Positions 3,026-32,200 of a DNA stretch of 64,000 nucleotides are shown here, one piece after another. Origin of the DNA: Euglena gracilis (taxonomy: Eukaryota); contig CP154954.1 in assembly GCA_039621445.1 (NCBI GenBank), positions 7,876,634-7,940,633 on the forward strand, written 5' to 3'. Each line of letters opens with the position of its first letter. The first letter of the stretch is position 1. The translations under genes and the position numbers were made by a program. A model generated the notes under the pieces. The model did no database searches and was not told the origin of the DNA. It saw only the letters and a list, made by a program, of their open reading frames with translations.

Positions 3026-5920
3026 CTGGGCAGGCCGGCAGAGAACCATCTCCCCATCAAATGCCACCCCCAAGGCGGTGTGTGAAATGAAAAAAAAAAC
3101 CTTTATCGTGCATACGTTTAATAATCAGGCAACTTTTGCCAGATTCAGGGAGGGTATGGCCCAATTTCTGGGAATAGGCCAAAAAAAACGGCCCCATTTA
3201 GGACATAGAGTTGGCCGGAAGTTAGGTCCTGGTTTCGGAAGATTTGTTGGAACACGGTTTGCCTAAACTTTGCCGGAATTCGGGGGTCTACCGCAAAAGT
3301 GGAATCCCAACTTTTTGGTTACCTTCGAGGAGGCTCCGCGGAGCCTCCGCGGAGCCTCCGCGGAGGCTCCTCGGAGCCTCAAGGTAACCAGGCTCCGCGG
3401 AGGCTCCTCGGAGCCTAAGGTAACCAGGCTCCGAGGAGGCTCCGCGGAGGCTCCTCGGAGCCTAAGGTAACCAGGCTCCGCGGAGGCTAAGGTAACCAGG
3501 CTCCGCGGAGGCTCCAAGGTAACCAGGCTCCGCGGAGCCTCCAAGGTAACCAGGCTCCGCGGAGCCTCCACGGAGCCTAAGGTAACCGGGCTCCGCGGAG
3601 GCTCAAGGTAACCAGGCTCCGAGGAGGCTCCGCGGAGGCTCGTCGGAGGCTAAGGTAACCAGTTTTGCCAGGGCATATTGTGAACATGGTAGTAACGGGA
3701 ATTTTGTTTTTTTTTGTGTTATAAAGAGAAACGTTATTCAATGTCAAACATGGCGACTGCACTCAGTGGCAGATCATGCTCTTCCAAACCTATCAGAATC
3801 TGTCCATTTTCTGCCCATTTGCATAGAGGATGCAAAAAAAAATTCACGTTCTGACAGGTTCGGAAGCTGCCACTGGGCGCAGTCGCCGTGTTTGACATTG
3901 AAGAAAGTTTCTTTTTATAACACAGAAAAAAACAAAAAAATAAATTCCCATTCCCAGTTGTATGTTCCCAGCGGGATGACAATTTTACGTACAATTCTGG
4001 CCTCTGGATAATTTTGGTGTAATTCTGGCAGAATAAATCCATTTTCGGTTTCGTTTTAAACTGTATGTTATCACTCAAAGTCCCTGTCCATTTGCTGCCC
4101 ATTTGCACAGAGGGGAAAATAATTCACGGACTAACTCACGGACTAATTCACAGACTCACAGGTGTAACAAAAAATTAACAGACTTCGGGAGGCAACATAG
4201 AGCGTAAACGAAACGGAAAATGAATTTATTCAGCCAGGATTTTACCTGAATTATCCAGACGCCAGAATTGTGCCTGAGATTGTGATCCCATTGGGATTTG
4301 CCGCAACTTTTAATCCTGAATTGGACTAAAGAATCTTCAACCAGGTGAACGAACAGTCACGTGGGGGGGAGGTGGTAGACAAACTGCACGTCAGCATGGA
4401 TGTGATGTTGCAAATAAAGGCCAGGTGAAACCCAAAGTGATCCATTTGGCTGTGCCCGGGGGGAGGGGGGCGGGGGGAGGGGGGGGGGGAGAGGGGAGGG
4501 GGGGGTGGGAGGGGGCCTGCTGCCCCCTCCCCCCGCCCCCCTCCCCCCTCCCCCCCCCCCTCCCCCCGCCCCCCTCCCCCCTCCCCCCGCCCCCCTCCCC
4601 CCCCCCCCCCCCACCCCCCCTTCCCCCCTACCCCCCACCCCCCTCCCCTGCTCCCCAATAACAACATCCCTTTGTGTGGACAAAGATTGGCGGACATGGC
4701 GTAAATAGCAAACGGGTAAACGGTAAAAGCAAATAAGGCAGACATGGCGTTTTTGTTGCAAATGGATTTTTGGTTTCAACAAGTTTGGTGGACATGGCGA
4801 AAACAGCAAATGGGTAAACGGTAAAAGCAAAATCAGGCGGACATGGCGTTTTTGTGGCAAATGGATGAATGGTTTTCAACAAGATTGGCAGACATGGCAT
4901 TATATAGCGAACGGGTAAACGCTAAATGCAAAATAAGGAGGCAAATGGATAAATAGTTTTCAACAAGTTTGGCGCAGGGCGGTCCTTAAGGAAATAAAAA
5001 AACAAAATTCTGCCGTCCCACACTCAATAAAAAATACAGGAAAATGGGCAAAGAAATTTGGCATTCTTCGGCGACAACAGGTCGATATCAGGGGGAAAAA
5101 CTGATTATTGGCATCCTGTGACCATCGACCAATCCACCCAAATCATCAAAAAGTGTGTTTTTTTTTGGACTTTTTAATTTTGGACCCCGTTCAAGTCCCA
5201 GTCCTGCCCTTGGTCGGTCCTTTGGCCGAAAGAGGGGCGGTGCTTAAGAAAATTAAAAAAAAACTTTCCTGTCCCTTAAAGACTGCCCTGGTTTGGCGGA
5301 CATGGCGTAAATGGCAAACGGTTAAATGGTAAAAATAAAAATTAGGAGGACATGGCATTTTTGTTGCAAATAGATTTTTGGTTTTCAACAAGTTTGACAT
5401 GGCGTATACAGTAAACGGGTAAACGGTAAAGCGGTGCGATACCAGACATGGCCTGTGTACAACAGTGGTTACCTCCGAGGAGCCTCCGCGGAGGCTCCGC
5501 GGAGGCTCCAAGGTAACCAGGCTCCGCGGAGCCTCCAAGGTAACCAGGCTCCGCGGAGCCTCCTCGGAGCCTAAGGTAACCAGGCTCCGCGGAGGCTCAA
5601 GGTAACCAGGCTCCGAGGAGGCTCCGCGGAGGCTCCTCGGAGCCTAAGGTAACCAGGCTCCGCGGAGCCTAAGGTAACCAGGCTCCGCGGAGGCTCCAAG
5701 GTAATCAGGCTCCGCGGAGGCTCCAAGGTAACCAGGCTCCGCGGAGCCTCCTCGGAGCCTAAGGTAACCAGGCTCCGCGGAGGCTCCTCGGAGGCTAGGT
5801 AACCAAAACTTAGGATTCCACATTTGCTGGGACCCGGAATTCGGCCTAAAATCTTCCTAACTTGGTCAGGAACGGGTGTAACTTATTCCGGAATACCTAT
5901 ATTTAGAGCGCCAGCGAGTA

Positions 5921-5951
<31 letters not shown>

Positions 5952-8719
5952 GTGTGCGCGCGCGTCTTTATATATACGTATGTGTGTATGCATACATACA
6001 TACATACATACATACACACATACATCCATTCACACACACATACATACATACATGCATACATACATACATACATACATACATTACATACACACATTACATA
6101 CATACATTACATACATACATTACATACATACATTACATACATACATTACATACATACATTACATACATACATTACATACATACATTACATGCATACATTA
6201 CATACATACATTACATACATACATTACATACATGCATACATACATACATTACATACATACATACATACACACATACATACATACATACATACATACATAC
6301 ATACATACATCCGTCCGTCCGTACATACAAACATACATACATACATACGTACGTACGTACGTATGCATGCATGCATGTATGTTTGTTGTGTGCATCTGTG
6401 TGTGTATATTTGCGTGTGTTATTCACAGCACACGCATTGATATTTAAATGACACATTTCATATTCATATTTGCATTTTATGACATTATATGTGTGTATGT
6501 GTGTGGGTACATATGCATATGTGTATTCGTGTATATTTGTAATCAAATTGAGAATCAGTCAATGATGGGAGGGAGCCATATACCTTGCTCTTGGGCGGAC
6601 GCCTGCACTGGGGCAATGGGCTGGGCGGCAAGGGCGACCTTCGGGCTGGCGGCAGAGGTTTGGGCGGGGGCAGCGGCCGGGACAGCCTCTGCAGGGGGGG
6701 GGGGAGGGGTTTACGGGACAGGCCAATGTCCAAGAACACCGATATTTCAAGAATGTGGCGGCGAAACTGGGGGGGTCAAAGACACGGTGCGCCAACCCAT
6801 ATTGTTAACACACAGCAACAAAAAAATGAATCCCCCCCTTTTTATGCATTTGGTGCTGTTTGGGCCAAATATTGGTTTGAACAGCTGAGTCAGCATTCAG
6901 CACCCCAACCGGATCACCAAACCGATACACCGGGAGGGGCATTAATTGCCCTCCGCCTTCCATTGGACAAGGACGGGCCACACACACCCTGCTGGGTCGG
7001 GGTGACGGGCTGGGTGGCGGGGGCTGCAGCTGGAGCGCCCTCTGCAGAGGGGGGGAGAGGGTTGGCACATTGTTTCCTCTGTGTGCCTGCGGGGGTGAAG
7101 TGTTGTGACGCTCAAACCTGGTCTTGGGGCAGGGGGGCATCAAGCTGTTGTTTACCAACCCTGGGGGGGGGAGGGGGGTCCGGAGTGCCTGCCCAGGCAG
7201 GCACTACTCCCCCCCCCCGGGAGGGGGTCGGATTTCGGCCTGTGCCCAGGCACATTCCTTTGAAAATAGGCCATTTTCGGCTCCCCGGCGCCTTTGGCGC
7301 CAGGTCTGTGCTAGGGCACTTTTGGCCGTGTCCCCCCCCCCCGGGTCGAATCGAGAGTGCCTTGGAGTGCCTACCCAGGCAGGCACTCCCCCCCGGGGTG
7401 GGGTCGGCACCCGACTAAAATACGGCCTGGGGGGCATCTTGAGGTGCGAGAGTCATGGTTGTTGATATCACCAAAACGATTTATGTCGCTGTTCCAAAAA
7501 TCCTGTTCTGCTATTTTTCAAAGAACCTTCCAGGAATCTCATTTTGTTTTCTATTTTCAGCAAATCTTTTCCTTGTTGTTAACTTCCTGAACTTTTCAAT
7601 TTTTGGTTTGTAAATCAAAATTGCACAACCAATGCCAAATAACAATCAAGAAATATCCAGTTCGCCCCAGCAGAGGGGCTCACAAATCCAGGAAAAGCAG
7701 GTGGGCCAGAGATGAATTTTAGCCCTGCCCTGCACTGCATCCAACACACCAAAAAGGACCCAAAATAAACACCTCAAAAAAAAAACAGCAGGAAACCAAA
7801 TCTGTCCTTTGGCATTCTTTCTTGGATTGTAAAATTATCACCTTGAGCCAATACAATGAGCGTGGCACAGGTTCCATTTTGATGTGCCAGGCGCCAGACT
7901 GCTTTTTCCCAACCCAGGGGGTGCACTGCATCATTGGGGGCCTGCCCATAGCAAGCACACCCCGACCCCGGGAGGGGAGCAGTTTTTTTGAGTCCCAGTG
8001 CCAACCAACCAAGCCACTTTTTCCCTTGCAAATGGCCCCCAGCACCGGGGGCATAGCACTGCTCACCAAAAATCCGACCCCCTCCCCACAACAAATACCT
8101 TCCTGCCCATACCACCATACTACCCTCCCGGCGGGAGGGGGGGGGTGCGAACTTTTCTGAAAACAAGCCGGCCATAGCCTGCCACACACACCCTGGTGGG
8201 CCGGGGTGACGGGCTGGGTGGCAGGGGCGGCCTTCGGGCTGGCGGTTTGGGCGGGGGCAGCGGCGGGGGCGGCCTCTGTGTGGGGGGGAGGGGGTGGCGT
8301 TGCTTCCTCTGTGTGAATGCAGGATGATGTGTTGTAACGCTCAAGCCTGGTCCCAGGGCACCGTGTTTGCTAATATCATCAAAACCGTTGACATCACTGT
8401 TCAAAAATTCTGATCATTATTATCATTATCATTATTCTTCTTCTTCCTATTATTAAAAAAAATTCAACAATATCATTCTGTTAATCTGTACCATTCATTT
8501 CCCATTATAACATTTCACACCTTTTCAGCAGTTCCAGCGTTGCACTTTTCGTTGCAAATCTCTGAGTTTCGTCCCCTCAATTTTTGGGTTGGAAAATCAA
8601 AACTGCACTTTTAATGCCCGAATAACATCCAAGATATATCCAGTTTGCAGCCCTGCAGAGGGCTCACGTTGGTTCCACTCCGCCTTCCATTTCGATATTC
8701 GGTCCATAGGTGGACAGGG

Positions 8720-10597: not shown

Positions 10598-11989
10598 CAC
10601 ACACAGACACACACACACACACACACACACACCCTGCTGGGCCGGGGCGACGGGCTGGGCGGCAGGGGCGGCCTTTGGGCTGGCGGTGGCGGTTTGGGCG
10701 GGGGCAGCAGTTGGTGCGGCCTCTGCAGAAGGGGGGGGGGGTGGGGAGACGGGGTTTATAAAACAGGCAGTGGTGGCCGTCCCATTTGTTTTGGAAGGGG
10801 ACCCATGGCTGGCCTGCAGCTCACCTCCACGAGGGCATAATCACCCTTGACGCCCTCCTTTTGTTAAACCCTGTCACTGGCGCTTAAAACCTCACAGTTG
10901 GATTCCATTTGAAAAGAGGCCAGCCGTGTATTAAAAAAAAACAATTTCGTTTCTGGATTCACAGAAATGTGAAGAGCAGTACGGTGTGGGCGTCTCCGGC
11001 TTTGTGCGTCATTGCCGTTTCATGAACAAAACGATTCATCAATTCAAAGTTTTTTGAAATAATCCAATGATTTTGACAAAATTTTCAGGCTTCTTTGAGT
11101 CAACTCATCATCCCCTCCCATTCCAATAAACACCCAGAGCAAATGCAAGGGGCCAAGAAAAATTTCGGCTCTGTGGATGGTCAAAATGCCCCCAATGCCA
11201 AAACGTTGGGGGGGGAAATCCCAAATTTTTCTTCGGAAAAATTTCACAAAATGACTTGTGTGGAAAACTCCTAAACATTCCAAAAGCGTGCAAAATCCAA
11301 AAAAAATGAGGAAAAAAAGGAATTGGTTTTGCACTTTCCAGCGCGCAGCATCGAAAATTCTTTTGGAACCTGCCAAGTGGAGTGACATAAAGTGGAGTGG
11401 AGTGGAGTGGAGGAGTGGGTCCAACACCCACTCTCAACATCCAGGGGAAGGGGTGGTCCGGACCCCCCCTCCTACCACGGGGAGTTCAGGATCATGCTTG
11501 TGCTTACCGACCGGGGGGAGTGCTCTTGGGTGCCTGCCCCTAGCAGGCACACCCCCCCCGGGGGGGGATAGGGGTCCGGGCCGGACCCAGAAAATTTTTG
11601 TCGAAAATGGCCTTTTCCGAAGGCGCCGGGGTCGGAGGGGGGTGCCTGCTAGGGGCAGGCACCCCCCAAAACCCTACCCGGGTGCTATGGGGTGCCAGCC
11701 CCCAGCCCCCCCCCCCCCCGTGGGGTAGGCACCCGACTAAGCACAAGCCTGTTCAGGATCCCCCCAACCACCTATCTCAATACCGACGGACTTCCCATCC
11801 ATCCCCCCCCTCCCTGTGGAGCTCAGAGACTTTAAATTAACGTTGGCCAGAAAAAGGGCTGCTGGCCCCACCCCCAGGAGGAGAACTGTGCTGGACTTGA
11901 CCCACCAGAAAGGGAATGATTGTTAATACTCCTCTTCCATTTGCAGGCCGGGGCCACACACACACACACACGCACACACACACACACAC

Positions 11990-12066
<77 letters not shown>

Positions 12067-15000
12067 GCACGCACGCACACACACCCTGCTGGGCCGGGGC
12101 GACGGGCTGGGCGGCAGGGGCGGCCTTTGGGTTGGCGGTGGCGGTTTGGGCGGGGGCAGCAGTTGGTGCGGCCTCTGCAGAAGGGGGGGGGTGGGGAGAG
12201 GGGGTTTATAAAACAGGCAGTGGTGGTGGCCGTCCCATTTGTTTTGGAAGGGGACCCATGGCTGGCCTGCAGCTCACCTCCACGAGGGCATAATCACCCT
12301 TGACGCCCTCCTTGTGTCAAACCCTGTCACTGGCGCTTAAAACCTCACAGTTGGATTCCGTTTGAAAAGAGGCCAGCCGTGTATTAAAAAAAAACAATTT
12401 CGTTTCTGGATTCACAGAAATGTGAAGAGCAGTACGGTGTGGGCGTCTCCGGCTTTGTGCGTCATTGCCGTTTCATGAACAAAAAAAAAGACTCAAGTTA
12501 TTCAAAGTTTTTGAAAATAATGCAATTTTAATAAAAAATATTTCAATTATTTTGACAAAGTTTTCAGGCTTCTTTGAGTCAACTCATCATCCCCTCCCAT
12601 TCCAATAAACACCCAGAGCAAATGCAAGGGGCCAAGAAAAATTTCGGCTCTGTGGATGGTCAAAATGCCCCCAATGCCAAAACGTTGGGGGGGAAATCCC
12701 AAATTTTTCTTCGGAAAAATTTCACAAAATGACTTGTGTGGAAAACTCCTAAACATTCCAAAAGCGTGCAAGGTCCAAAAAAATGAGGAAAAAAAGAATT
12801 GTTTTTGCACTTTCCAGCGCGCAGCATCGAAAATTCTTTTGGAACCTGCCAAGTGGAGTGACATAAAGTGGAGTGGAGTGGAGTGGAGGAGTGGGTCCAA
12901 CACCCACTCTCAACATCCAGGGGAAGGGGTGGTCCGGACCCCCCCCCCCTACCACGGGGAGTTCAGGATCCCCCCAACCACCTATCTCAATACCGACGGA
13001 CTTCACATACATCCGCCCCTCCTTGTGGAGCTCAGAGACTTTAAATTAACGTTGGCCAGAAAACACACAACCACACACAGCCACACACACTCACATAGCC
13101 ACACACACACACACACACACACAACACACACACACACACACACACAGCCACACGCAACACACCCTGCTGGGCCGGGGCGATGGGCTGGGCGTCGGCCTTC
13201 GGGCTGGCGGTTTGGGCGGGGGCAGCTTCTGCAGCGGGGGTGGAGCACTACTTACCCCCACCCACCCACCCACCCACCCACCCACACGCACGCACGCACC
13301 CACTCACACAACACACACACGCACACACACACACACACACACAACACACACAACACCACACACACACACACACACACCCACACCCACACACCCACACAAC
13401 ACACACACACACACACACACACAACACACACACAACACACACACACACAACACACACACACACACACCCTGCTGGGCAGGGGCGATGGACTGGGCAGCAG
13501 GGACAGCCTTCGGGCTGGTGGTGGCGGTTTGGGCGGGGGCAGCGGCCGGGGCGGCCTCTGCAGAGGGGGGGGGGGAGTTGACATCTCCCGGTGATCCCGG
13601 ACGTGTGTCACCCTCTGCAAGCGGTGAACGGCACATTTCTGCCTGAATGTATTGATGTTGGGAATCAGATTTAACAAAAGCAAGGCGGGGCGGGGGATAC
13701 AAAAAAAAATGGAACAAACACAGCAAAAAAAAAATGCAATTGAAACAGAAGAATGGCACATTTAAGCGACAACACAAAAAGCACTCTTTCTGCCGAGTTC
13801 CGAAGTTGGTTGAAATGGAGGCGGCGTTCGATGTCTGTGATGGTGGTCCCAGAGTGGGGGATCAGGAGCAGTTATTATTGAAAACGGGGCGGTAGCTGCC
13901 AATAAAATGGTTTTCTGTGCTCAAGTGCAGCGATTTCCGAGGGACATCAACCGAATTATTAGAATCAGGTATGAGAAAATCACAATTAAATGATACCACC
14001 CCCCCCCCCCCCCCGGCTCCCCCTTGGTCATCCAGTAAATAACATTCTGTTTCCCACCTCAATCCAAATCAAGGCGTTGCTTAACAGCCACCCCCCCCCC
14101 CGGGAGGAGGCTGGAAAAACTTGTCCGGAAGGAAAAAAGTTGCTACCTGGCCCCCCTCAAAGGGGTTCCCCCCCAGAACTGGGCCTGACCTGCCATTCGA
14201 TGCCCCATGGCCATGAACACACACCCTGCTGCGCCGGGGCGATGGGCTGGGCGGCGGGGGCAGCCTTCGGACTGGCAGCGGCAGTTTGGGCGGGGGCAGC
14301 AGCCGGGGCGGCCGCTGCAGCAGGGGGGGACACGTCATTGACTCTGCATGGCACTGCATTTGCTGCTGTTTAATCATTGCTGGATTGCGTCCCTCATTCT
14401 TTTTACTCCTTCTTTGTTTTGTTTGGTTGATAGCAAATCGAAATTCCAACTCACACCCCAAAACAGAAATATATACCGGCCACCACCTGCAGAGAGAGCC
14501 AGAACTTCTGTTCCAGAAATCTTCTGCTATCTTTTGAGTCATACAATTCAAAAAAAAAACACTTGAGAATACTGAAATTTGTGCCCTGTGATGCAAATAA
14601 TCAAGAATAGCCAGAAAAGCTGTCGCAGGGGAGGAAACGACAAAGAACTAGATCTGTTTTTGATCTTCTGGGGCTTCAACAATTAAACGTATTCACCACA
14701 TCACCACAAATAGAATGTCCAGCCAATTACACCAAAAAATACACTGTTTGGGGCACTGTTTTGCACTCCACCTTCCATTTGACGAGCCAGGGCCACGCAC
14801 ACCCTGCTGGGCTCGGGCAACAGGCTCGGGGGCGGGGGCGGCCTTCGGGCTGGCGGTGGCGGTTTGGGCAGGGGCAGCGGCTGGGGCGGCCTCTGCAGAA
14901 TCAAGGGGACTGGCAGGGTCAGCCCATTATTGACTCCATGTACATGCGGGATGTAGCTGTAAAATTAAATCCCCCCCAAAAAACAGCACTCCTGCTACTA

Positions 15001-16498
15001 TCATCAAAACCGTTTCTGCACCTGTCTCAAAAATGTTTTTCTTCATGGAATTGTTCAAATACTTAACCAATTTTCACCAATTGTTTATTTTTTCAGGAAT
15101 TTGTTTAGCATTTTCATAAGCTCCTGAAACACTGTTTTATGAATTAACGCCTGAATTCCTGGATGTCTTGTGCCATTTTTGGTTTGCAAGAACAAAATGC
15201 ACAAGGCAGGAAGATCCAGTACGCCGCCTGCACAAAAGCACATCCAGGAAAACCTTGCACAGGCCAGAGCTGCTTGTTCCATAAACTGTAAATTGTAAAG
15301 AGAGACCGTAAAGAGAAATTCAGGGTGGTCCTCAAGGAAATAAAAAAAATATCTGCTGTCCCAGCACACTCAATGAAAATATACAGGAAAATGGGCAAAG
15401 AAATTTGGCATTCTTCGGCGACAACAGGTCCACATCAGGAAAAAAAAAACTGATTCTTGGCATCCTTGGACCATCGCCCATCCGCCCAAATCATCAAAAA
15501 ATGTGTTTTTTGGACTTTTTAATTTTGGACCCCGTTCAAGTCCCAGTCCGGCCCTTGGTCGGCCCTTTGGTCGAAAGGGGGGGCGGTCCTTAAGAAAACA
15601 AAAAAAACAACTTTCCTGTCCCTTAAGGACCGCCCTGGAGAAATTGTGAAGCTGGACACTGAAAAAAAAATGGCAGCCCGAAACTACTGGGCCCCCCCGG
15701 GGGGGGGCAGTAGTTAATCCGGGGGGTCAAAATAGTTTTTTCGTGTTAATGATGGAATAGGGTTAGGTGCGCGACTTAGGCTTAGGGTTAGGCCTAATTT
15801 ATAGACGGGTGTTCGGTGTACAAGTTAGGCCTAACCCTAAGCCTAAGTCGCGCACCTAACCCTATTCCATCATTAACGCAAAAAAATTACCTTGACCCCC
15901 CGGATTAACTACTGGGCCCCCCCGGGGGGGGGGGCAGTAGTTTCGGGCTGCCAAAAAAATTACCTTGAAATCAGGCGTTTAAAGACCCCAGGGAAAAGGG
16001 ACTGCTGGCTGACCATTTTGCAAGACACTGGAAAAATAAGCCACAAGCCAAGCCATTAGCTAGACCGCTAGAGGGGGTCCGAGTGTGCTGCGCGCCGAGG
16101 TGGAAATGAGGCTTTTAATGTGTTTTGGGGGGGGGGGTAACTTTGTTTCAAAAAAAAATCCCAAAAATGGCCAAAATGGGCATTTTTGGCAAATGTTTGG
16201 GGGTCAAAAAATTTTCGGCGCTTCGGGCCAGCCACTGGAAAAAAAATACCACCATTTAGCCCTGTTACTGCCCCCCCCCCCCCAGGAGGGTTTCCGCTGA
16301 GATTCCCACTTGCCAAATTTGGACCAGCTGCACTCCAGCCCCCTGGGGCAGGGGGGGGGGTAACTACGAACCCCTCAAGCAGAAACCTGTCAGCAATGCA
16401 CATAAAAATGTCCAGCACATAAAAATATGTCCACAGCACAAAAAACACATCACTTGCACTGCGCCATTCCACGGGAAGGGGCCGCACACACACACACA

Positions 16499-16545
<47 letters not shown>

Positions 16546-16740
16546 CACACACATCACACACACACACACACAAACACACACAACACACACACACACACAC
16601 ACAACACACAACACACACACACACACACAACACACAACACACACACACACACACACACAACACACACACACACACACACAACACACACAACACACACACA
16701 CAAACACACACAACACACACACACACACACACAACACACA

Positions 16741-16771
<31 letters not shown>

Positions 16772-17391
16772 ACACACACAAACACAACACACCCTGCTGG
16801 GCTGGGACGATGGGTTGGGCAGCGGGGGCTTCCTTCGGGCTGGCGGTGGCGGTTTGGGCGGGGGCAGCGGCCTCTGCAGAATTGAGGGGGGAGGGTTGGT
16901 GCATTGCTTACTCGGGGTGTAGTATTTTGACGCTCGAATTCGGTCCTGGGGGATAAGGTGAGGGACGAGAGGCAGCTTGCTAACGTTGTGAAATCCATTT
17001 CCGCCTCTGTTTCAAAGAGTCTTTCGTTACACTGCTTTGAATTTCCCAACTCTTTCAGCAATTTCCGTTTCTTCATTTGCAACGTTTCATGATTAGCTGG
17101 TGCACTTTTCAACTGCTGACCTGCTGAATCATGACATCCAAAAAATATTCGCAATACTGAAATTTCTCCCTGCAAGGAATTCAGATCACCAGAAAAATAT
17201 GACATGCAATACCCACACGGATGTTGTCAGGGGGGAAAAATGTGGAGGAGCCAAATCTGGTTTTGATCAAAGTCACCTCATCACCTCAGGTATATCCAAT
17301 CAACCCAACCCCACCTCAAAAAATACATCATTGGGGACTTTTTCGGGGACTGTTCCCCGCCATTTGATGGTCGATGCCACGCACATGCACA

Positions 17392-17424
<33 letters not shown>

Positions 17425-17425
17425 A

Positions 17426-17456
<31 letters not shown>

Positions 17457-17779: not shown

Positions 17780-17801
17780 CACACACACGCACACACACAC
17801 A

Positions 17802-17864
<63 letters not shown>

Positions 17865-17877
17865 GCACACACACACA

Positions 17878-17952
<75 letters not shown>

Positions 17953-19370: not shown

Positions 19371-19433
<63 letters not shown>

Positions 19434-22400
19434 CACAGCACACCACCCTGCTTTGTCGACTGTGCAGGTCCGGCAGAGGCAGCTGATAGAGGCGCCGGAG
19501 TTGCGGAGGGCAGACTGGCTGCAGTTTGGGGGCCAGCAGCGGTCGCTGTTTGGGCGGAGCCAGTGCTTTGGGGGTTGGCAGCAACTGTGTGGGGGGAAGG
19601 GGGCAGGACGACAACCAGGGTTTCACCAAAATTGTTTACAACATGGATTCAAAAAAACCAATCAACCAAAAAAAATGCAAAAAAAATACCACCTCCAAAA
19701 TGCATTAAATTTAATAAATTAAAATTTTTATTTGACGTTTGGTTCGGAAAAATTTAATTAAATCATTAAATAATTAGTTAATAGGAAAAATTTATTTAAT
19801 TCCCACCCGAAAGCAGTCTGAACGTGGCCTAGCAATGTGTGGTACGTTGGCACACCAATACCAATGAAACTGAAAAAAAAAACTGCGACAAACCTCCCCA
19901 AACATGCAGACACAAAAAAAATACAAAAGATGTCGCGCATATTTTTTAAAAAGCATACTGAAAACCACTGTTTTTTTTTGCACCACTGTTTACATATTTT
20001 GTGCAAATAGTTTTTGTGTCTTTATTTGCACCTGAATTAATAAATTCTAATTCTGAATTAACAAATTGTAACTCAACTTTCCGTGGTTTGGGGGTCGGGT
20101 GTTTAAATGTTTTATTTTTCTTCAACCCAAACAATAAAAACAAGCGAAGCAATACAACCATTTCACATGATGTAAATGATATAACACAATACATCATTTC
20201 CAAAAAATCAAAAAAATATTGAGAAAAAATTTGTGTTTTCCCTCCCATGCCCGTCGGAACGCAACCCACCTTCCTGCGATGCAGAAGCAGCCTGGGACGC
20301 GGTGGCGGTGGACTGGATGGCGAGTGGGGCCGCCGTCAGGCTGGGCCCAGCAGTCTGCACGGCAGTGGCCGGGGCCGCCCCTGCAACACACAAGCAAACC
20401 GCTAGAACGGCGGTGGGCTGGCAGCGTCGGAGGGACAGTGGTGTGCATTGGAGGAGGGTCCTTTTCCAAGGCCAGGGGGCCACTGGGGTCCTTCATCCAT
20501 ATGGGTGAACAATTCTTCATCCGGATGGGGGCTCCACTTTTGGGGAGGTTGAATGGTGACAGAAAACTATTTTGCCAAGTCCCTCTGGAGGTGCCCACTC
20601 GAGCTGACTCGGTTAATGGGGATCTTTGTATACATAACCATGATAATACACACGCATATGCATACATAAAATATATAGATGGACATATAGGCACATACAT
20701 ACATACGTACATACATACATACATACATACATACATACATACATGCATACATACATACATACATACATACATACATACATACATACATACATACATACAT
20801 ACATGCATGCATACATGCATGCATGCATGCATACATACATACATACACACATACATACATACACGTGCACATACATATATACATACATACATGCACACGT
20901 ACATGCCACGGTTGGCGTTTATTTTTGTTTTTTTAAAAAGTGTAATTTTTTAAAAATAAACCAGTATAAAAACATTGTTTTTTGAAAATACAAATTTTCT
21001 TATATTTTCCTTAAAAAATGGGCCTTTTGGGGAAAGGCCCAAAACCATACCGTGGGAGACATGAACGAAAAAAATGATAATTTTGTTTTTGTGGATGTAG
21101 GACGCAGGGGTTTTTTTTAAGACCGGGGGGAGGGGGGGTCCCCCCACCCACCCACCCCCTGGGCCCCCCCCCCCCGGGGAGGGGGGTCCCAGGGGACCCA
21201 CAAAAAATGGCCGAAAAATCGCGAAAAGTGCTAAAAATAGCACTTTTTTGGCGCCTTCGGCGCCGAAAAGTATATCCCACCCCCCTCTGGGGGGACCCCC
21301 GGGGGGGGCTCGGCCGGACCCACCCGCCCTGCCCCCCCCCCGCCGGGGGTCCACGACTAAAAAAAACCCCTGGTAGGATGGCCTATATCCAAAAAGAACC
21401 TTCCAACTGTCGCTGAATCAAGGCATGGCACATTTGAAAAGCCGCAGTGTTTCAGAGGGTTTACTCCTCACTGTCTGATTGCCCTGGGTCCACTTTTTTG
21501 GATTTTTTTTTTTGCTGAAAACGTCACCCAAAGAAGCCTTCCTGCAGGAGGGCTTATTTTTCATTCAAGACCCATTTTATTCAGCACCTATTTTTGGATC
21601 CTAAAGGACAGCCTTTGGAAAGGAACCAAAATTTGCTTCAAGGAATGATTATTTTGCAACATGCACAAAATGGCATAAAAATCAAAATCACCCATTTTTG
21701 GGGGCAGTTTCACAGTGTGGGTCGGGTTTTTTTTTTGACCGGGGGAGGGGGGTCTCCCCACCCCCCACCCACCCCCTGGGGGATCCCGGGGGACCCACTC
21801 AAAATGGCCAAAAAATTTGCGGAAAACGCCAAAAATAGCACCTTTTCAAAAATTTTCGGCGCCTTTTGCGCCGAAAAGTATATCCCACCCCCCTCCGGGG
21901 GGATCCCCCGGCGGGGGGGCTCGCCAGACCTACCCCCCCTACCCCCCCCCCGGGTGCAAAATAAAAAAACCCCTGGTGTGGGTGCTTTCTGGGGGGCATC
22001 CCCCCCAAAAAATCCCAACGGGGCTCAAGTTTTGCAGTTAGATAAAAATCAGCCGGGGGATCTTTTGGGGGGGGTCTGATTTGGGGGGTACTTCGATGGA
22101 TAATGTCAGGCAATGTCCTGGAGGTGTGGCGTGGACACGGGGGTTTGCCGGCGACACATCACCCACATGGGGCGGGGGGAGGCCAGCTGGCAATCACAGG
22201 CACAAACGTGTTGCACTGGGATTGGGGGCAAGTCCTTCGCACCGAGCCTAGCACCGATGGGCAAAACGAAAGTGTCAGCCCTCAGACCCGCCACAGCACA
22301 GCCGGGGGCGTGGCACGCACCGCAATCGCCCCCATCAAAGCCGCACGCTTGCACGTTGCAGGCGGGGTCGCACTGCGAGTTGCCAATCCATGAGAACGGG

Positions 22401-25400
22401 CAGCCCGCCACGCACAGCGGCAGCGCTGGGAGGCGACGCAATTGGGTCGTGGCGCAGCTTCAACAATAACTGGGGCGGTTGCGCAGGAAGCCATTTGTTG
22501 TCGGCGGTTGTCATACGACTGCCGCCAACAACAAATGGTCAAATGCGGGGGGGGGGGGGCTGTATGGGAAAGATTGTTTCAATCCAGATGCAGGCGGGCA
22601 GGGGTCGACACACAGGGCGGCGATTCAGCACATTCTATGAAAAATCCACAAAAAAAGGCCGAAAGAAATGACCATAATTTGGCAAAAATGGGTCGAATGT
22701 GGGTGAAATTTTTTGGGGGGAACGGGTGTTTCGACTTTTCAATTTTTTCGACCCCAGTTGAGCCCCAGTTTGGCCCTTGCCCAGCCCTCAGGCTTACAAG
22801 TGGTCCTTGAGGGGTGGTCCTTGGGGAGAGGGGGGGAAAAAACCCAAAAATCCCGTCCCTTATGGACGCCTTGTCGACGACAGAGCACTGCACAAGGATA
22901 AAACGAAGGCGGAGGAAGGAAAGCCGGGGGAAAAAAAACACCACCCCCTTCCCAACTACCCAAAAAATTTTTCCGGGATTCCTGTCTTCCTGGAGGTGGG
23001 GTTGATCTTGGGGGACCCCTGGCCCAGCACCCGGGGAAGCTCGGCCTCAACTTGCACAGGCGAGAAGAGCGCGATATCAAATGCCCACACGTCGCACTGG
23101 CCACGCCAGGGATTCAGCCATGCAAGACGCGTGCTCCAATTGCACGCTGGCAGAGGTGGACTCAGCACACCGTTCGAAGAGGCTGGCAGGACGGTGGCTG
23201 CGGACCCCGACTGGGCGGTGGTGACTTGTTGGCAGCCCATTGCTCAAGGACCCCCGGTGGACCACTGGCTAGCCATTTTGCTGGACACTGGAAAAAATGG
23301 ACTGGCTAGACCCCCCTCTCCCCGGATCTCCCCTGGGGGGGATCGGGGGAGCCCCCCCCCCCCCCCGACTGGACTGGAAATAATTTTTTTCCGGCGGTGA
23401 TTCCGAGGTGGAAATGAGATTCTTAATGCATTTTTTGGCTGATTTTTTCAAAAATAAAATCCAAAAAAAGGCCAAAGATGGGCATCTTTGGCCATTTTGG
23501 GGGGTCCCAGAAATTTTTTCCAGTGATTTGTACGAAATTCTGATCACTGGAAAAACTCCACCAACCCTGCCAGCAGACCCCCCGGGGGGAGGTTCCACCA
23601 TAATTCCCAGAAGCCAAATCTGTAGAAGCTGCAGTCCAGCCCCCCCCCCCCCAGGGTGCTGTGAAACCTTAAGCAAAGGCCTGCTTGTTGGGCGGCTGCA
23701 GAAGTGGAGGTCGTGCCTGCGGAGGGGGAGGGGGAAGTGGTGCACACTGACAGGGAAAATTCTGAGAGGAAAGATCTGGCAAATTGTATGGGTTGGTGCC
23801 AAGCCTCCTTTTCAGAATCGGATTGGTGCCAGTGTGGTCTTCAGCTCAACCCCACACAGGCTATTGCGTTAGCACTCCAGGAGAGGGGGGCTGGCCATTT
23901 TGCTGGACACTGGAAAAAAGGAACAAACTAGACCCCCTGGGGAGGGGGTCCGGGGGTCCCCAAGACTGGAAAGAAATCTTCCTCCAGCGCTGTGCGCCAA
24001 TGTGGAAACGAGGCTTTTAATGTGTTTTTTTGGGATGATTTTTTTTGCTCCAAAAAGCCCAAAAATGGTCAAAAATGGGCATTTTTGGCACTTTTGGGGG
24101 ACCCAAAAATTTTTCGATGCTTCACGTTTTTCACTGGAAAAAAAATCACCAAGCCCTGCTGGATCCCCCCCCCCCGGAGTCCACTCATCAAATTTGGACC
24201 AGCTGCAGTCCAGCCCCCCCCCCCCCCCACAAGGGGGTTACCGCAACCCTTAAGCAATGGCCTGACCCCCCAGGTTTTGAAGAAAAAGTCAAAAATGGTG
24301 AAAATGAGGTCACCTCCCCAACCTGCAGGGTCCCATGCCAATCGGGAGGGTCTTTTAAAAAAGCCTGGTCTCGCAATGTGTGCCTCAAACGACCCTATTG
24401 TTATTCCAGCAGGCTGTTCCTTGGACAGACGAAGGGGGGGATGGCCCAAGAGGAAAGCAGTATCTCTCTCGGTGTCTACCCACACCTGCACTTTTAACAT
24501 CTGCACCGGTGCAAAACCCAAGTTAACAAAAGCAGGGGACCCGGATGGCTTTCTTTTTGGCCTTTCGGTCAATTCGATTTGTGAAGTTCGGAACTTTTTC
24601 CGAAGTTTTACACTGCCCCGTTTCACAACGAATACACAACAGCTGGGTAAGCACAAACTGGATGGTGCGCCCACACATCCAACTTTCGAAACCCCCTTTT
24701 GGGGAGCAACTATCCTGCCATCCGAGAATATTTGGTTTCAATGATGACACCGGACAGGGAATGCACGCACAACTCTGTCGGACTGACCACAGCGAGGCAA
24801 GATCGACCACACCGCAGTCGCCCCCGTCGAAGCTGCACGCCTGCACGTTGCACGCCGGGTCGCACTGCGAGTTGCCGATCTTGTCCAGGGATCCTTTGAC
24901 TCACCTCACCGCAACGTGCAAAAAAAAATTGCAAGCCTGGAGCTGGGGGGGGGAGGGGAGCCTTCAACAAATCCCTGACTCAAGAGAAAGGGCAGCCAGG
25001 CACACACAGTGGCAGTGCTGAGGAAAAGAAAACCCAACACGAATGCTGAGATGGGGCAGGTTGCCAGGGCTACAACAATGCTCGTTGGCAACTGTGGCAC
25101 ACTGCTTCAACGGTCCAGTGGGAAAAAATCACCAAAAATTTGGAACGCAAAAAGAAATCAATCAAAACAGCAGAAAATTTATGTTCCAGGTCACACCATT
25201 CACAAAATCAAATACAAATTTCTGTTGCCGATGGGGGGATCACACTGGAGAAAAGCGGGTGAATAAAATTTTAAAGTGGCAGTCTTGGCTGATAATAGAA
25301 AAATATGGGGGCCTCAGCCTGGAAAAATATTTGGAGGACCCAGAAAAAAATGGAGATTGAAGAAAGATTTAGGGTTTTAGAAACAAATTAATAAAATAGG

Positions 25401-26081
25401 TTACCAACATAGGAATCTGACTTTGGTCAAAACAAAGTCGGAATTTTCTCGCTCAAATAAAGAAATGCCAATATCCTCCAAATTGGCACCAGTTTTGTGC
25501 ACCTCATCGTGAAAATGATGGTTTTTTTTCGAATTATCGTGGGAAATTTTGGAGGAATTTTTTCCCTCCGGTTTTTCCCCATCCAATCTTCTCCATCCCC
25601 ACTGCTCCTCCCATGGTGGGAAATTAGACCGTTGTATTTTTTAATACATCAGACAACATCATATCTCTCCTGTTCTGAGACTCACCCCAACTATGTGCGC
25701 AGGTGTGGGTCATACTTCAATCACACCGTTTGTTGAAACTGTTGGGAGAATGATGGGCTGTGTGGCTGCAGGTTTGGTGCTGGAGCTCGAAGTCGAGCTT
25801 GCAGTGGCTGCGGGGGAATTAAACATGAGAATGCAACACAGAAAAATGAGTAAGTGCGACGTCACTGTTGATGGGCATGAACACATATTTACACGTGCGT
25901 GGAAAAACTCATCAACTCATCCAACCGTATCTGCTCAGTGGAACACCATGTCATGTCGCTCACCAAGCCCCAGGGAAAAAACCAAGAAACCAGTATGTCA
26001 CGATAAAAAAAAAAACTGGTCAACCCACATCCCCTAAATGGTGTCGGGCGACCCAGGAACAACAATACCAAGCGATGGCAC

Positions 26082-26137
<56 letters not shown>

Positions 26138-26143
26138 CGCACG

Positions 26144-26218
<75 letters not shown>

Positions 26219-29200
26219 ACACACATGCACGCAGGCACACACAGACACACACGCACACAAATGCACATGCATGAAAGCCAACGCAGCTGGCGGGAGGGGG
26301 TGGGGGGCACACTACCCTGGGCGGCCAGTGCCGGGGCAGCGGTGGCAGTGGCGGGTTGGGTGGCCAGGGCAGCCGCACCGGTGGCGGCTGACTGGGCGGT
26401 GGCTGTGGCTGCAACACACGGGGGTTTTGCCGGAGAAAGCATGCCACCCAGGCGTGTGGGGGGGCTGGTCTGAACCCCGGGGGGGGGGGGGTCAAAACCC
26501 CTCCTCTGTGCAAAAAAAAAAATCCGGCACAAAGCGCCAGAAATTGTTTCGACCGTGCAAAAAGCCCCAAAATAGCGTATTTGCACACTTTCTTGAAAAA
26601 AAATCAGACAAAACAAACACAAAAACAAACACCAAAATTTCTTCCCCGGCGCGAAGCACCAGGAAAAAAATGGATTCTTTTTTGGTCCCGGCCTCCCCTT
26701 GGTCCAAAGGGGGAGGTGGTCTGGACCCCCTCCCCCCACCCCGCAAAGCCACCGCTCGCGTAACCCCCTGCCCCCAGGATTATAACACTGATGAGGCGGA
26801 CCAACAATGAAATTTTGTGGAAGGGAAAAAGAAGTGTTCAATACGCAATCCAAGCACAGGAACTGAGGGAATTTTGTGCCTTTAGGAACCCCGAAAAATA
26901 CACAATTGCACATGAGCACCTGCAAATTAAAATTTGAAAAAATACACCCAACACACATTTCTGACGCATGCATAAATACATACATATGTGCAGGCGGACA
27001 AACATTCATACATACGTGCCTGTGGAAATACATCCATGTGTGCATACATACTGACATACAAACAAAGAAACGTTGGTGCATACATTGTGCATACATGGAT
27101 GCATACGACACACTGATATTTTGCATATATCTTAGGCGGCGCATCTCGCACTTAAATTTTTTTCTTTACAACGTGCGCAATTGTTCAAAATGACATTTTT
27201 TTACGAAAACCCTGAACCGCCAACCGCACCTGGTGAAACAGAAATATGTAGATGCACACCTCACGATACATGTTAGGAAACAGGAAGGTTTCAAAAAAGT
27301 TTCTTAACTAGCTGCCTGATATGTCTGGAGGGACAGCTTCATGTTCTTGTCTGTGAAACAGGTGGGTTGTGCACTCTGGCTGTTATACCCATGGGGTTTG
27401 GTGTGTCTGTGCAGCCTGTGATTGCTGGGTGTTGCACACCTGTTTGAGGGGGACCGACTTTTCACCATTAGGACAATGCGATGTGCAGTTAAAATTAGAT
27501 GATAATTGCGAGACAAAAACCTTTTCAGCATTATGTCCCTATCGATGGACTGAAATATGTGTCAACGCCGGCGCCAAAATCAAATTTTTTTCGGGGTGCG
27601 AAAATACGCACACCGACCAAAAGAAAGCTTGAGCGCGAGATGCGCCGCCTAAATATATATGACACCTGCACCAGAATGCTCTGGGCCAGTTGGTGCACAC
27701 CCTGTTGCGCAGCGGCCGGCGCCGGGGCAGGGGTGGCTGGGGCTTCCGCCTTGGGGACCACACTGGCCTGGGCGGGGGTCCCGGCTGTGGTGGTCCCTGC
27801 GAAGGCAAACGCCAGGGTCTTTGCTGAGTCTGAACATGGCGAAAGAGCAACCACGCACTGGTTTCCCGGGTGGCGATGCGGGAAAATCGAGTTGTCACAA
27901 ACCGACTGCGAATCTATCGAAACAAATCAGCCATCTATCAGGCAACTGCCAGCCGAAAAGCGGGGAAGGTGCACACACCGCAGTCGCCCCCGTCGAAGCT
28001 GCACGCCGGCACATTGCACGCCGGGTCGCACTGCGAATTGCCGATCCAATCCAGGGCTCTTTGACGGATACCATTGCCCACCAGGCTTGTGCTTACCGAC
28101 CGGGGGGGGGGGAGGGGGGTCGGTGGGTGCTATAGGGTGCCTGCCCCTAGCAGGCACACCTCCGGGGGGGGGGGGGGTCCGGGGGACCCAGAAAATTTCC
28201 ATTGAAAACGGAGTCGAGGGTCGAGGGGGGTGCCTGCTTTGGGCAGGCACCCCCAAAAAACCCTACCCCCCCCCCCCGGGTGGATGGGGTGCTATAGGGT
28301 GCCTGCCCCTAGCACCCCCCCCCGTGGGGTAGGCACTCGACTGAGCACAAGCCTGTTGCCCACCCACAGATCTTGGAATTCCCATTCAGCCCTGCTCTGG
28401 GGGGGGGATGGGGAGGTTGGTGGGTGAGCCCCCCCCCCCCGGAGGTGGGGTCGAGCCAAAGAAAATAAACCCCCAGAGGAGCTAACCCCTCTTTTCAGTG
28501 AAAAGAGATGGGGGAAATAAACCCAAAGTTAGCCATAACTGTCCAACGCCAACTGCAATTCACTGCAATTCTAAAAAGTTATGTGAATCTGGACAGTGCC
28601 CTTGCAATCGATATCCTGGCACTTGGCATTTTGATTTTGTGTGGCAATGAATACCAATGTCAGCTTGGGAGACAAGAACATCAGGTCAAAACCCAGAAAA
28701 ATGCGGCAAATAACACAAACTTGCATTCCCAGGCACACAACGACAACAACTTCCATGGATGGTTGAGGGCACTCCCAACAAATCCCTGATCCACGAGAAA
28801 GGGCAGCCAGCAACGCACAGCGGCAGGTCTGGGGAAACACATGCCGATGCAAAATGAAACGGAAAAAAACTGGCAAATGAGGCTACGGCTGTACCAATGC
28901 ACTTAATCTTGTATATTAAGAAAACTCCCCCCCCCCCAAATAACCTGGCGGGGCCCTTGCTTCTGGCAGTGGCCGAACAACTTGGCGGGGGAGGGGCAAA
29001 AAAGATGGTTCCAATAATTTGGCACCCCCCCCCCGGCAAAATTGGCAAGATTCCTTTACGGCGCTGAAAAGAGGTCTCAAATTACCTGGCAGGGGGCAGG
29101 GCCAAAAGTTGGTTCCAACAACCTGGCACCCCGCCACATCATTTGGGGGGTTACAAATAAAAATGTGTGTACCAATATATTTATAAAATGGGGGGGGCTG

Positions 29201-32200
29201 GTACATGGACCAGAGACAGCAACAGGTTGCCCGGTCCAGCCATGTGGTTGACGCGGCAGGGAGAAGGGCAGGCTGAGTGGCAGTGGCTTTGGGACCGGAG
29301 CCCGCGGCTTGAGGTGTTGCGGTGGCTGCAACGCGCTTCCCAAATGGTACCACTTGACAGAAATGCGCACGGGACTCACTGATGTGAATGTAAATGAGGC
29401 GGTGAGCGAGCCACATTTTCAGGCCCAGCAATGGAGACTCCAGCAGGTCCACACCCTCCTGTGCGGCAGCTTGAGCCGGGGTAGTGGCAGCAGCGGGTGG
29501 TACTGGGGTCGTGGCAGCCGCGGCGACGGGTTGTGCCGGGGTCGTGGCAGTGGCGGCTGCAGGTTGTGCCGGTGTCGTCGCAGCAGCAGTTGCGTCTTGA
29601 GCGGGGGTTGTGGCAGCGGCGGGGTGTACCGGGGTCGTGGCAGCGGGCGTGGCAGCGGGCTGAATGGCCGGGGCTGCAACACTCGGGCCGCTGCCAGCGG
29701 CGGCCGGGGTCGCTGCTGGAGCTGAAAGACGCCGGGCGAGGCAGGGAAACCGCATCGCGAAACGCAGGTCTCGGACGAGGCGTTCATGGGCTTGGATGTG
29801 GAACATGCAATCCAGAGAGTGAGTGCAGTGAAAATCTGCAATGAGTTCACCATCTTCACCCAGGCTAAACAAAATTAACAAATGCTGTCGAAAATCGGTT
29901 GAAACATACACCAAATTTTTTCGGTTTCCGGCGGGAAATGCCGGAAATTTGGGGGGGTTGCCCAGGAGGGGGGGGGGGGGACCCAGACCCCCCTCGGTGT
30001 GAAGGGGGGTCCCTCCCCCCTGGGAACACCCCCTGAAAAACCACCGCTCATGTGATACCCTGGGGCCAGGGGGCAAGGCTTCTTATATACCCAAACCCCG
30101 GGAGGTTGGGGGTACTTGCTATGAGGTGCCTGCCCATAGCAGGCACCCCCACCCCCCGGGCCAGGACCTTAGATTCACTTGCCATCTGTGTGAGCATACC
30201 TCCCCCCCCCCCGGGGGGGGTTCGAGAGTGGGTGGGCCCACCCTGGGGGGGGGGCGCAATATTTTGGAACAGCTGAAGGCCAGGCCGGAGATAATCTGAT
30301 CAGCGGTTTTGACGAATATTGGCTGTATTTTTGGGTGGGTGGGTGGTGGATCCCCGACCCCACGGGGGGGGGGGCAGCCCGGCGCCCCTTCGGGGGGGGG
30401 GGGGGAAACCGGGCCGTCTGAGGGCATTTCCCCCAAAAAATTGGCAGTCCGTGCAAAAACCCATTCCGGGGCCGGACCCATTCCGGGGGGGCCGGACCAA
30501 TTCCGGGATTCCGGGGGGGGGGGGAGACCTGTCCATTCCGGGGGGGACGGCCCCAGGGGGGAGGGCTGACAGAAGCCTGAGCACCACCCCACCCCAAAAC
30601 CCGACCCCCAGGGACACTGCCCTGCCTCCTGCCTGCCCATGTACCCCCACAGGGGTTTTTTTAAGACCGGGGGGTCCCCCCACCCACCCACCCCCTGGGG
30701 GCCCCCGGGGGGGGGGGGGTGGTCCCGGGGAACCCACAAAAAATGGCCGAAAAATGGCGAAAAGTGCTAAAAATAGCACTTTTTCGGCACCTTCGGTGGC
30801 GAAAAGTATATCCCACCCCCCCTCCGGGGGGACCCCCCCGGGGGGGGGGGGCTCAGCCGAACCCACCCACCCTACCCCCCTCCCCCCCCGGGGGTCCACG
30901 ACTAAAAAAACCCCTGTACCTCCATTCTGTGGGGTGTGAACGTCCGGGGGGCACACCCTGCTGCACAGCGGGCGGCGCCAGGGCGGGGGTGGCAGCCGGC
31001 TGGGCGGCCGGGGTGGCCGTCGAGGGGCTGGTGCTGGCAGCTGCAGTGGGGGCGCCAGCGGTGGCGGTCCCTGCGGGGGAAAAGCTCTCGGACACAACGC
31101 GGTGGGGTCAGGCTCCGATGCAAAGCCAGGTGGGGGGGTCGGACCCCTAACTTGAACAGTGGCACAATCTTTCAACCTGGCGCGAAGCGCCGGGCCAGAA
31201 AACTTGGACCCCCAAAACATTATGGGCACTTTTGGCAAAAAAAAATGTCAAAATGCAAAAATTTTCGGTGCAAAGCGCCAAAAGGAAAACTTTGACCTTT
31301 TTTGGGAAGGTCTGGCCCATCCTTGGCAGGTGGGGGGTGGTCTGTGGACCCCCCTCCAGGGGGACACCCCCCCCACGCCAAAACCCCGCACGCCCTCCCC
31401 GAACCCTGGGCTGTGGTCCGGAAAATGAAGGGCAGTAGGGAAGACCATCCCACCGCTCACCAAAAACTGATAGGCGGTCTCACCACAGGACGTATTCTGC
31501 TTCGCCTCAAAAACTTTCATTCACTCAATGGTTCACGATTGGCCCCAAACTCAATAATATGCCCCGAGAATATTATTTGGGGGGGTTATTTGCTTTTTTA
31601 GAATTGCATTCTGCCAGCATTCACCACTCACTCAATCAGGGCTCAGTGCCCAGACTCAGCACCATTCTCAGCATTGCAACTCAGCACTTCCAAGCACAAA
31701 TCCGATCACAAAAGAGACACTTGTTTCAAAAAAGGATTATCCAATTTACCGCGCTAAAGCTGTTCCCCTCTCACTTACTCTTTATACGGAAATATATTTC
31801 ACCTTCATGCCAGAAACGTGTTTGTTTTTCAGGCACAAAGGCATTATTATGATCTGAGGAAACCCGACAAAGTGAAGTTAATCAGAGCCACAATTCAAAA
31901 AAAAAGCTGGGTTCTTTGGGAAATCTGTCCTCTGACCCATTAAAATTTTTAAAACCCAACCCCAGAAACCCAAAAGAAATTGCTTCTCAGATCCCCCCCC
32001 AAAAAGCAGAGGGAACGCATGCATGAATGAATGCAAATCGAGAGCCACACGCACACACCACAAACACACACCACAATCACCACCATCAAAGCTGCACGCT
32101 TGCACGTTGCACGCTGGGTCGCACTGCGAGTTGCCAATCCACGAGTATGGACACCCGGCCACGCACAGCGGCTGATCTGGGAGGGTAAGAATAAGAATGA

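Follow-up and report, generated by a model that had tools for sequence, protein, structure and literature searches.

CAG...CTG-type miniature transposons with 8-bp target site duplications in Euglena gracilis DNA, and how they may relate to the 3- and 5-nt spacers of nonconventional introns

The sequence analysed here, referred to as the window, is a stretch of 64,000 nucleotides of Euglena gracilis DNA (assembly GCA_039621445.1, contig CP154954.1, positions 7,876,634 to 7,940,633 of the forward strand). On its minus strand, between about 800 and 46400, it carries an apparently single, very large gene for an extracellular protein, and on its plus strand it carries part of the IFT52 gene. Distributed along the window are miniature transposable elements with inverted repeats (MITEs), bounded by terminal inverted repeats (TIRs) of the CAG...CTG type and flanked by target site duplications (TSDs) of 8 bp. 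These termini match the code of the nonconventional introns of euglenids, and the two spacers of that code, 3 and 5 nt long, add up to the length of the TSD.

A preliminary description of this DNA had listed ten MITEs of at least four families, with 8-bp TSDs and with CAG/CTG termini in which one base was changed in three cases, and this account was confirmed. In all ten, the 8 bases preceding the start recur immediately after the final CTG, 253-451 bp downstream. The repeat is perfect in seven (starts at 4975, 7141, 11493, 15321, 21723, 23233 and 28082) and has one mismatch in three (21105, 23857 and 30650). The termini are CAG...CTG in 7/10 elements, the first triplet being CAA at 7141, CAT at 11493 and CGG at 21723. 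When the elements were compared by BLAST, they fell into groups A, B and C, a pair with D-type termini and the isolated element at 7141, so that 'at least four families' was a fair statement.

Family A consists of A1 (4975-5290, 316 bp, CAG...CTG, TSD copies GTTTGGCG and GTTTGGCG) and A2 (15321-15637, 317 bp, CAG...CTG, perfect TSD GAGAAATT), which are 87.7% identical. B1 (11493-11751, 259 bp, CAT...CTG, perfect TSD TTCAGGAT) and B2 (28082-28355, 274 bp, CAG...CTG, TIR 12/12, perfect TSD TTGCCCAC) share 75.9% identity. The three members of family C are 82-87% identical, namely C1 (21105-21372, 268 bp, CAG...CTG, TSD GTAGGACG/GTAGGATG, one mismatch), C2 (21723-21975, 253 bp, CGG...CTG, perfect TSD GTGTGGGT) and C3 (30650-30916, 267 bp, CAG...CTG, TIR 12/12, TSD TACCCCCA/TACCTCCA, one mismatch). 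D1 (23233-23683, 451 bp, CAG...CTG, perfect TSD CTTGTTGG) and D2 (23857-24264, 408 bp, CAG...CTG, TSD ACCCCACA/ACCCCCCA, one mismatch) are alike in their termini and in short stretches only, and E1 (7141-7429, 289 bp, CAA...CTG, weak TIR, perfect TSD GGGGGCAT) has no relative among the listed elements. The TSDs differ within a family, as in A1 (GTTTGGCG) and A2 (GAGAAATT). Therefore, the TSDs were made at insertion and were not carried by the element.

Beyond the ten listed MITEs, perfect TSDs were also found around F1 (34104-34446, 343 bp, CAT...CTG, TSD ATCCAGAC) and around a longer element, G1 (35350-36989, 1640 bp, CAA...TTG, TIR 11/12, TSD GCTGTGAT). A further copy of family C, C4 (34467-34707), has no clear TSD, its C-rich flanks agreeing at 5/8 positions. 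B3 (39187-39403) is a degenerate copy of family B, with a TAG start and a damaged right end, for which no TSD was scored, and the family-A-like A3 (61954-62177, 224 bp, CAG...CTG, TIR 13/14), located in intron 6 of IFT52, has flanks that agree at 1/8 positions. A 281-bp element at 15672-15952 has a perfect 14-bp TIR (CAGCCCGAAACTAC). At either end, GG lies beyond the CAG, and beyond the GG there is an 8-bp direct repeat, AAAAAAAT. In published work, Merlin elements are marked by GG termini together with an 8-bp TSD, and this A-rich repeat could also be due to chance.

The length of the duplication was assessed on 15 two-ended elements, which are all the elements of the window with both ends recognisable, failures included, by comparing L flanking bases at either side. 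At a flank length of 8, 12/15 elements matched with at most one mismatch (nine perfectly, three with one mismatch). The number of matching elements at the other lengths was 2 at 4, 0 at 5-7, 1 at 9 and 0 at 10-12. Position by position, the flanks were identical in 12-14/15 elements within the 8 columns, compared to 1-6/15 just outside them. The window was also scanned blindly for a CA- or CGG-start and a CTG-end spaced 100-2000 bp apart, with a TIR of at least 9/12 and flanking 8-mers that differ at no more than one position. This revealed 14 matches, whereas 100 first-order Markov sequences gave 0.34 on average (maximum 2). MITEs accounted for 10/14 of these matches, and the remaining 4/14 were artefacts of repeated exons or poly-C. 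The observation of the MITEs is solid. The surroundings of A1 contain a palindromic satellite (GGAGCCTCCGCGGAGGCTCC... / AAGGTAACC), which forms two blocks about 2.1 kb apart (3330-3650 and 5460-5800) at either side of this element, and both blocks yield many false TIR/TSD matches.

The summed depth of sequence words in one DNA run was 1.6e5-4.6e5 in five MITE-bearing bins, compared to about 80-135 in three MITE-free bins (13002-13668, 17004-17670 and 24341-25007), values that do not represent a copy number. At the right end of B1, 52 DNA contigs from run X2 follow the window as far as 11751, the final G of the element, and diverge beyond it. Four DNA contigs of the same run join the last base of a family-B element directly to the first base of a family-C element (11751 / 30650), which points to B-C insertions that abut or are nested at other genomic sites, or to an artefact of the assembly graph. 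A metagenome scan with two family-C termini returned only two unrelated hairpins, whose flanks carried no repeat.

The code with which these termini can be compared comes from the literature. Following earlier work on euglenid nonconventional introns (Milanowski et al. 2014 and 2016), the code N3-CDG...CH'G-N5-6|R was defined by knock-in (Nomura et al. 2025, PMC12501133). According to that paper, the 5' spacer is strictly 3 nt, as a change of +/-1 abolishes function, a paired stem and a purine at the start of the downstream exon are also required, and synthetic 50-bp introns designed to the code are spliced. Nonconventional introns represent 71.8% of the introns of E. agilis, and 69.1% of them are 'slidable' (PMC12501133), compared to about 44% expected from unrelated junction bases by our own rough estimate. 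At each of the two junctions, Y/R (pyrimidine/purine) has been reported (PMC6221363), a pattern that would result from two cuts made at one and the same point of both TSD copies. A new gapC intron, known from a single strain of E. agilis, is flanked at its junctions by direct repeats of eight nucleotides, which the authors read as break repair (PMC4770533). Elsewhere, CAG/CTG have been labelled TIRs and the junction repeats 'TSD-like' (PMC11282704).

The preliminary description was also right in stating that a MITE origin of nonconventional introns had been proposed before (PMC3935182), in a paper whose authors, in 2013, stated that transposable elements had yet to be identified in euglenid genomes. 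The idea of tolerance, i.e. of a machinery that mitigates transposon insertions, already appears in the Discussion of PMC12501133, and the terms 'TSD' and 'target site duplication' are absent from that paper. Neither genomic MITE families nor an 8-bp TSD are described in the published work on the code. Full-text literature searches found neither a description of Euglena genomic CAG...CTG MITE families with 8-bp TSDs nor any explicit equation of 3+5 with the length of the TSD.

In the mechanism that we propose, the elements are high-copy, non-autonomous cut-and-paste DNA transposons (MITEs) of E. gracilis, in which terminal sequences define at least five families, 241-451 bp long, with a further element of 1.64 kb. 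TIRs of the CAG...CTG type bound each of them, and its insertion makes the 8-bp TSD. The ends carry the whole element-borne part of the code, that is, CDG...CH'G closing a paired stem. A copy inserted in an exon would then be excised together with positions 6-8 of the left TSD, acting as N3, and positions 1-5 of the right TSD, acting as N5, and the required purine would be position 6 of the right TSD. Because the cuts would fall 3 nt before CAG and 5 nt after CTG, and the TSD is 8 bp long, the sequence present before the insertion would be restored. Whichever its orientation, the element would be excised along with exactly one TSD, if TSD position 6 is a purine. Such MITEs would be the likely source of the nonconventional introns, and the 8-bp TSD would explain the asymmetry of the 3/5 offsets, a reading to which we assign a probability of roughly 0.65. 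The machinery may moreover be kept because it tolerates these elements. The gapC repeats, the Y/R at the junctions and the share of slidable introns are published points in favour of this reading. As a synthesis it is sound, can be tested and extends the literature by one step, and the window does not demonstrate it.

It had been claimed in the preliminary description that the 3/5 offset makes any such insertion scarless, in either orientation. The arithmetic is right, as the element plus exactly 8 nt would be removed in both orientations, but 'any insertion' was too strong, because a purine is needed at TSD position 6, the motifs are damaged in part of the elements and the element with GG outside CAG would leave 4 nt. 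A purine was found at TSD position 6 in 8/12 elements on the plus strand and in 7/12 on the minus strand. An accepted CDG/CH'G pair is kept in 10/15 elements (nine with CAG/CTG and one with CGG/CTG) and damaged in 5/15. In minimum-free-energy folds, the terminal CAG pairs with CTG in 15/26 element-strand folds, and two of the three pairs are formed in four more.

The preliminary description had also counted six nonconventional introns with 3/5 offsets in the window. Two could be located and fit (CGG...CCG with N3 and N5, followed by G); the other four were not located, and the six other introns that could be verified, i.e. the five complete IFT52 introns and one intron in an RNA contig, are GT-AG. 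A scan for CDG...CH'G pairs based on continuity of the open reading frame (ORF) gave 1,007 candidates and was far too unspecific, only the pair in the thrombospondin type-3 (TSP3) repeats of the large minus-strand gene being interpretable. Two minus-strand exons with these repeats were recognised, one from 2865 to about 3038 (Pfam TSP_3, E 2.4e-11, P0011), and one at 1436-1504 (Pfam TSP_3, E 1.1e-7, P0012), the latter between the two putative introns.

The first of these, NC-1, would run on the minus strand from 2864 to 1505, with N3 GGC, CGG (2861-2859)...CCG (1512-1510) and N5 CGCCC, followed by G at 1504. The second, NC-2, would run on the same strand from 1435 to 853, with N3 GGC, CGG (1432-1430)...CCG (860-858) and N5 CCCCC, followed by G at 852. 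Both have the arrangement exon...CAGGCT | GGC CGG ... CCG N5 | GAC.... The predicted splicing of NC-1 restores NPSQ-A-DVDKDG, and that of NC-1 and NC-2 gives the register of the uninterrupted TSP3 repeat within the upstream exon. From the sequence, NC-1, for which there are four in-frame GT..AG alternatives, is a probable nonconventional intron. By the register of the TSP3 repeat, NC-2 is a convincing candidate; no in-frame GT-AG alternative was found for it in a check made by hand only, and the 10 bases from its CGG are, by eye, fully complementary to the 10 ending at its CCG. The protein search with the TSP3 exon returned 51,860 matches, of which the best 150 were at most 74% identical and included no transcript of the same species. 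NC-1 and NC-2 occupy equivalent positions in a repeat unit that has been duplicated, and they are therefore one old intron copied with its exon.

Several observations weigh against the MITEs as a source of nonconventional introns with offsets set by the TSD. Within the code itself, the 3' spacer of 5 nt tolerates one nucleotide more (6 nt; PMC12501133) and, therefore, the machinery is not a pure 3+5 ruler. Among the elements, 3/15 two-ended ones lack a TSD (A3 with 1/8, C4 with 5/8 and the degenerate B3), and the 3/5 ruler would not remove the 15672-15952 element scarlessly, as it would leave a 4-nt scar. An 8-bp TSD is moreover not specific to hAT elements. The 8-mers flanking NC-1 and NC-2 in the TSD register are identical at 4/8 and 3/8 positions, respectively, and neither intron has another copy in the window. 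Therefore, they are not members of the MITE families found here, and as cases they neither support nor contradict the TSD model. Furthermore, no MITE of the window lies in a recognisable exon, as those that could be placed are in GT-AG introns and the rest in non-coding DNA, and the precise in-silico removal of 12 MITEs produced no convincing reading frame across the site.

Reads were placed on the region 11001-31000, which contains 8/10 MITEs, from two RNA raw-read runs chosen by the same species label (5-6% read of each), a DNA run and a set of probable RNA contigs. Outside repeats, in the unique parts of this region, both RNA raw-read runs had a depth of zero or close to it. The reads in MITE bins continued into unlike sequence, in shares of 0.99 and 0.93, and therefore came from other copies or from C/G runs. 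With an RNA depth near zero in 11001-31000, no MITE-sized splice or empty site appeared among the 15 of 825 joints listed.

The assignment of the elements to a superfamily also bears on the argument. hAT elements have 8-bp TSDs and CAG-type termini, with the terminal consensus 5'-YARNG and the target preference nTnnnnAn. With the hAT elements Ac/Ds, the MITEs of the window share the 8-bp TSD, short TIRs starting with CAG, small non-coding copies and a possible bias in the TSD for T at position 2 and A at position 7. A CAG start is present, or one base off, in 14/15 elements. Position 2 of the TSD is T in 7/12 and position 7 is A in 5/12, which gives a joint 12/24 against 24.5% expected (P = 0.006, in a small sample). 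They differ from hAT elements in that position 5 departs from YARNG in several families. Families A and C (CAGGG) alone have G there, the other starts being CAGGC in B and D, CAAGC in E and G and CATAC in F (left end). 'hAT-like' is a reasonable label for these elements and not a result. Ds has also reportedly acted as a de novo intron, going by the title of a report by Giroux et al. 1994.

An alternative would be that the link between MITEs and introns is real and the elements belong to another superfamily with 8-bp TSDs, such as Merlin, a P-like one or an unknown one, which we consider unlikely. Two Merlin (IS1595-like) families with 8-bp TSDs have been described in E. gracilis itself (PMC8101967), and the conserved ends of Merlin TIRs, 5'-GG-3', come with TSDs of 8-9 bp (PMC8101967). 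The fit of families A and C alone to YARNG, and the GG termini of the element at 15672-15952, also favour this alternative. In the same direction, neither a transposase nor an autonomous partner was found in the window, and no transposase-like ORF was seen in G1 (1.64 kb) by eye, no scan having been made. In contrast, the base adjoining the TSD is C in 12/12 TSD-bearing elements (CAG, CAA, CAT or CGG). These elements thus lack the terminal GG of Merlin, though their TSD length fits, and only the 15672-15952 element has GG ends, the families otherwise starting with C(A/G)G. The possible T2/A7 bias of the TSDs, being the preference of hAT elements, would also argue against a non-hAT origin.

A second alternative is that the elements are ordinary transposons unrelated to introns, the 3/5 spacers reflecting the geometry of an RNA enzyme and both the sum of 8 and the CAG/CTG triplets being due to chance. 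CAG-type termini are common among DNA transposons, no MITE of the window was seen as an intron, and NC-1 and NC-2 are not MITE copies and have no TSD, all of which would be expected in this case. However, such a coincidence would have to cover three independent features that agree, namely the terminal trinucleotides, the paired stem that starts at them and the equality of 3+5 with the TSD length. Two published observations also speak against it, the newly gained intron with 8-nt direct repeats (PMC4770533) and the Y/R at both junctions (PMC6221363). We therefore regard chance agreement as distinctly improbable.

Still less probable is a non-transposon route, in which the introns and their junction repeats arose by repair of double-strand breaks or in some other such way and the MITEs merely resemble them. 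The 8-nt repeats were read in this way by the authors of PMC4770533, most introns have short repeats only, and NC-1 and NC-2 have none. Nevertheless, break repair gives no reason to expect repeats fixed at a length of 8, inverted CAG...CTG termini or high-copy families with copy-specific 8-bp duplications. The formation of the MITEs by reverse splicing or retro-insertion of intron circles was ruled out, as the 8-nt flanks differ between the copies of a family and are duplicated at each site.

The MITE ends are like euglenid nonconventional introns in carrying CAG...CTG closing a paired stem, the TSD being able to supply both spacers, and the two introns of the TSP3 gene fit the code with CGG...CCG. 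They differ in that the MITEs of the window lie in GT-AG introns or in non-coding DNA. A second relevant system is that of the Introner elements of Micromonas, Aureococcus, dinoflagellates and others (PMC11282704), which are likewise short transposons with TIRs and TSDs that turn into introns when they insert, the TSD aiding exact excision. Introner introns are, however, spliceosomal, of the GT/GC-AG type, with one site co-opted from a 3-nt TSD (PMC11282704), whereas the MITEs described here would use a non-spliceosomal system based on the CAG/CTG stem, with both cuts inside the TSD copies. The MITEs, whose ends are CAG-type and CTG-type and whose TSDs are variable, supply no GT...AG pair.

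Since the 1990s, it has been an open question where euglenid nonconventional introns come from and how they work. If the code sits at the tips of concrete MITE families with 8-bp TSDs, the hypothesis of a MITE origin becomes quantitative. It would predict that 8-mer identity is in excess in a single fixed register, that sliding stops at 8 and that the circles have a defined junction, as well as the outcome of knock-ins with 7-, 8- and 9-bp duplications. It would also explain why two unequal spacers sum to 8 and why a Y|R preference is common to both junctions. At present, this is a well-motivated synthesis of known pieces with newly described elements and not a demonstration.

A more far-reaching version is tentative, and we consider it possible but doubtful. 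Nonconventional splicing would then be a dedicated system of excision at the RNA level that co-evolved with 8-bp-TSD CAG...CTG transposons. The offsets would have been selected, or inherited from the transposition machinery, so that each insertion erases itself from the mRNA, letting MITEs colonise exons and become most of the introns of the genome. If the co-evolution is true, the junction of the circles that excised introns of young copies form is predicted to consist of CTG, the 8-nt TSD and CAG.

As for the genes, the large minus-strand gene contains numerous short exons rich in Pro and Ala, and four LNR exons at about 39.8, 37.3, 32.1 and 24.8 kb (Pfam Notch, E about 1e-9), besides the TSP3 repeats at 3.0-0.8 kb. 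An adhesin-like exon at 45956-46399 rests on a weak match to pAdhesive_15 (E 6.7e-5, just under the cut-off), the only one obtained when 20 single ORFs from 40-51 kb were compared with Pfam. The readable introns of this gene are GT...AG, one of them being confirmed by an RNA contig in which 27701 is joined to 26408. Homology searches found no transcript-derived protein for the gene, and the search with the LNR exon gave no match. On the same strand, the conventional 5' splice sites of the repeated exons abut (GT)n microsatellites (39690-39750, 37260, 32080 and others), an example of an intron opening with (GT)n being that after ...GGCGACTGTG at 39.75 kb. A (CACG)n microsatellite of 600 bp, with 151 copies, occupies 17390-17987.

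In the IFT52 gene, a plus-strand exon ORF of the window encodes the IFT52 GIFT domain (Pfam, E 3.3e-37). Residues 1-237 of eukprot:EG_transcript_9433 are matched without any difference by six exon segments, which define exons 1-6 at 53860-60907 on the plus strand and identify the window as nuclear DNA of E. gracilis. The five complete introns (5/5) are GT-AG when sliding is allowed, one of them being 4,754 bp long, and the sixth begins with GT and extends to or beyond 64 kb. No nonconventional intron was found within this part of the gene (exons 1-6).

Between both genes, at 46973-50218, lies a tandem satellite of 3.2 kb, which is the cause of a strong GC skew. Its basic period is 71 bp, and periods of 158, 229 and 371 appear at a higher order. 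Finally, the last IFT52 intron contains a dispersed repeat, at 61360-61770 and 63160-63980, with similar ORFs on both strands that encode near-identical peptides such as ...INNKHWCWQNCHGI..., and this repeat includes a 151-bp tandem duplication at 63290-63581.

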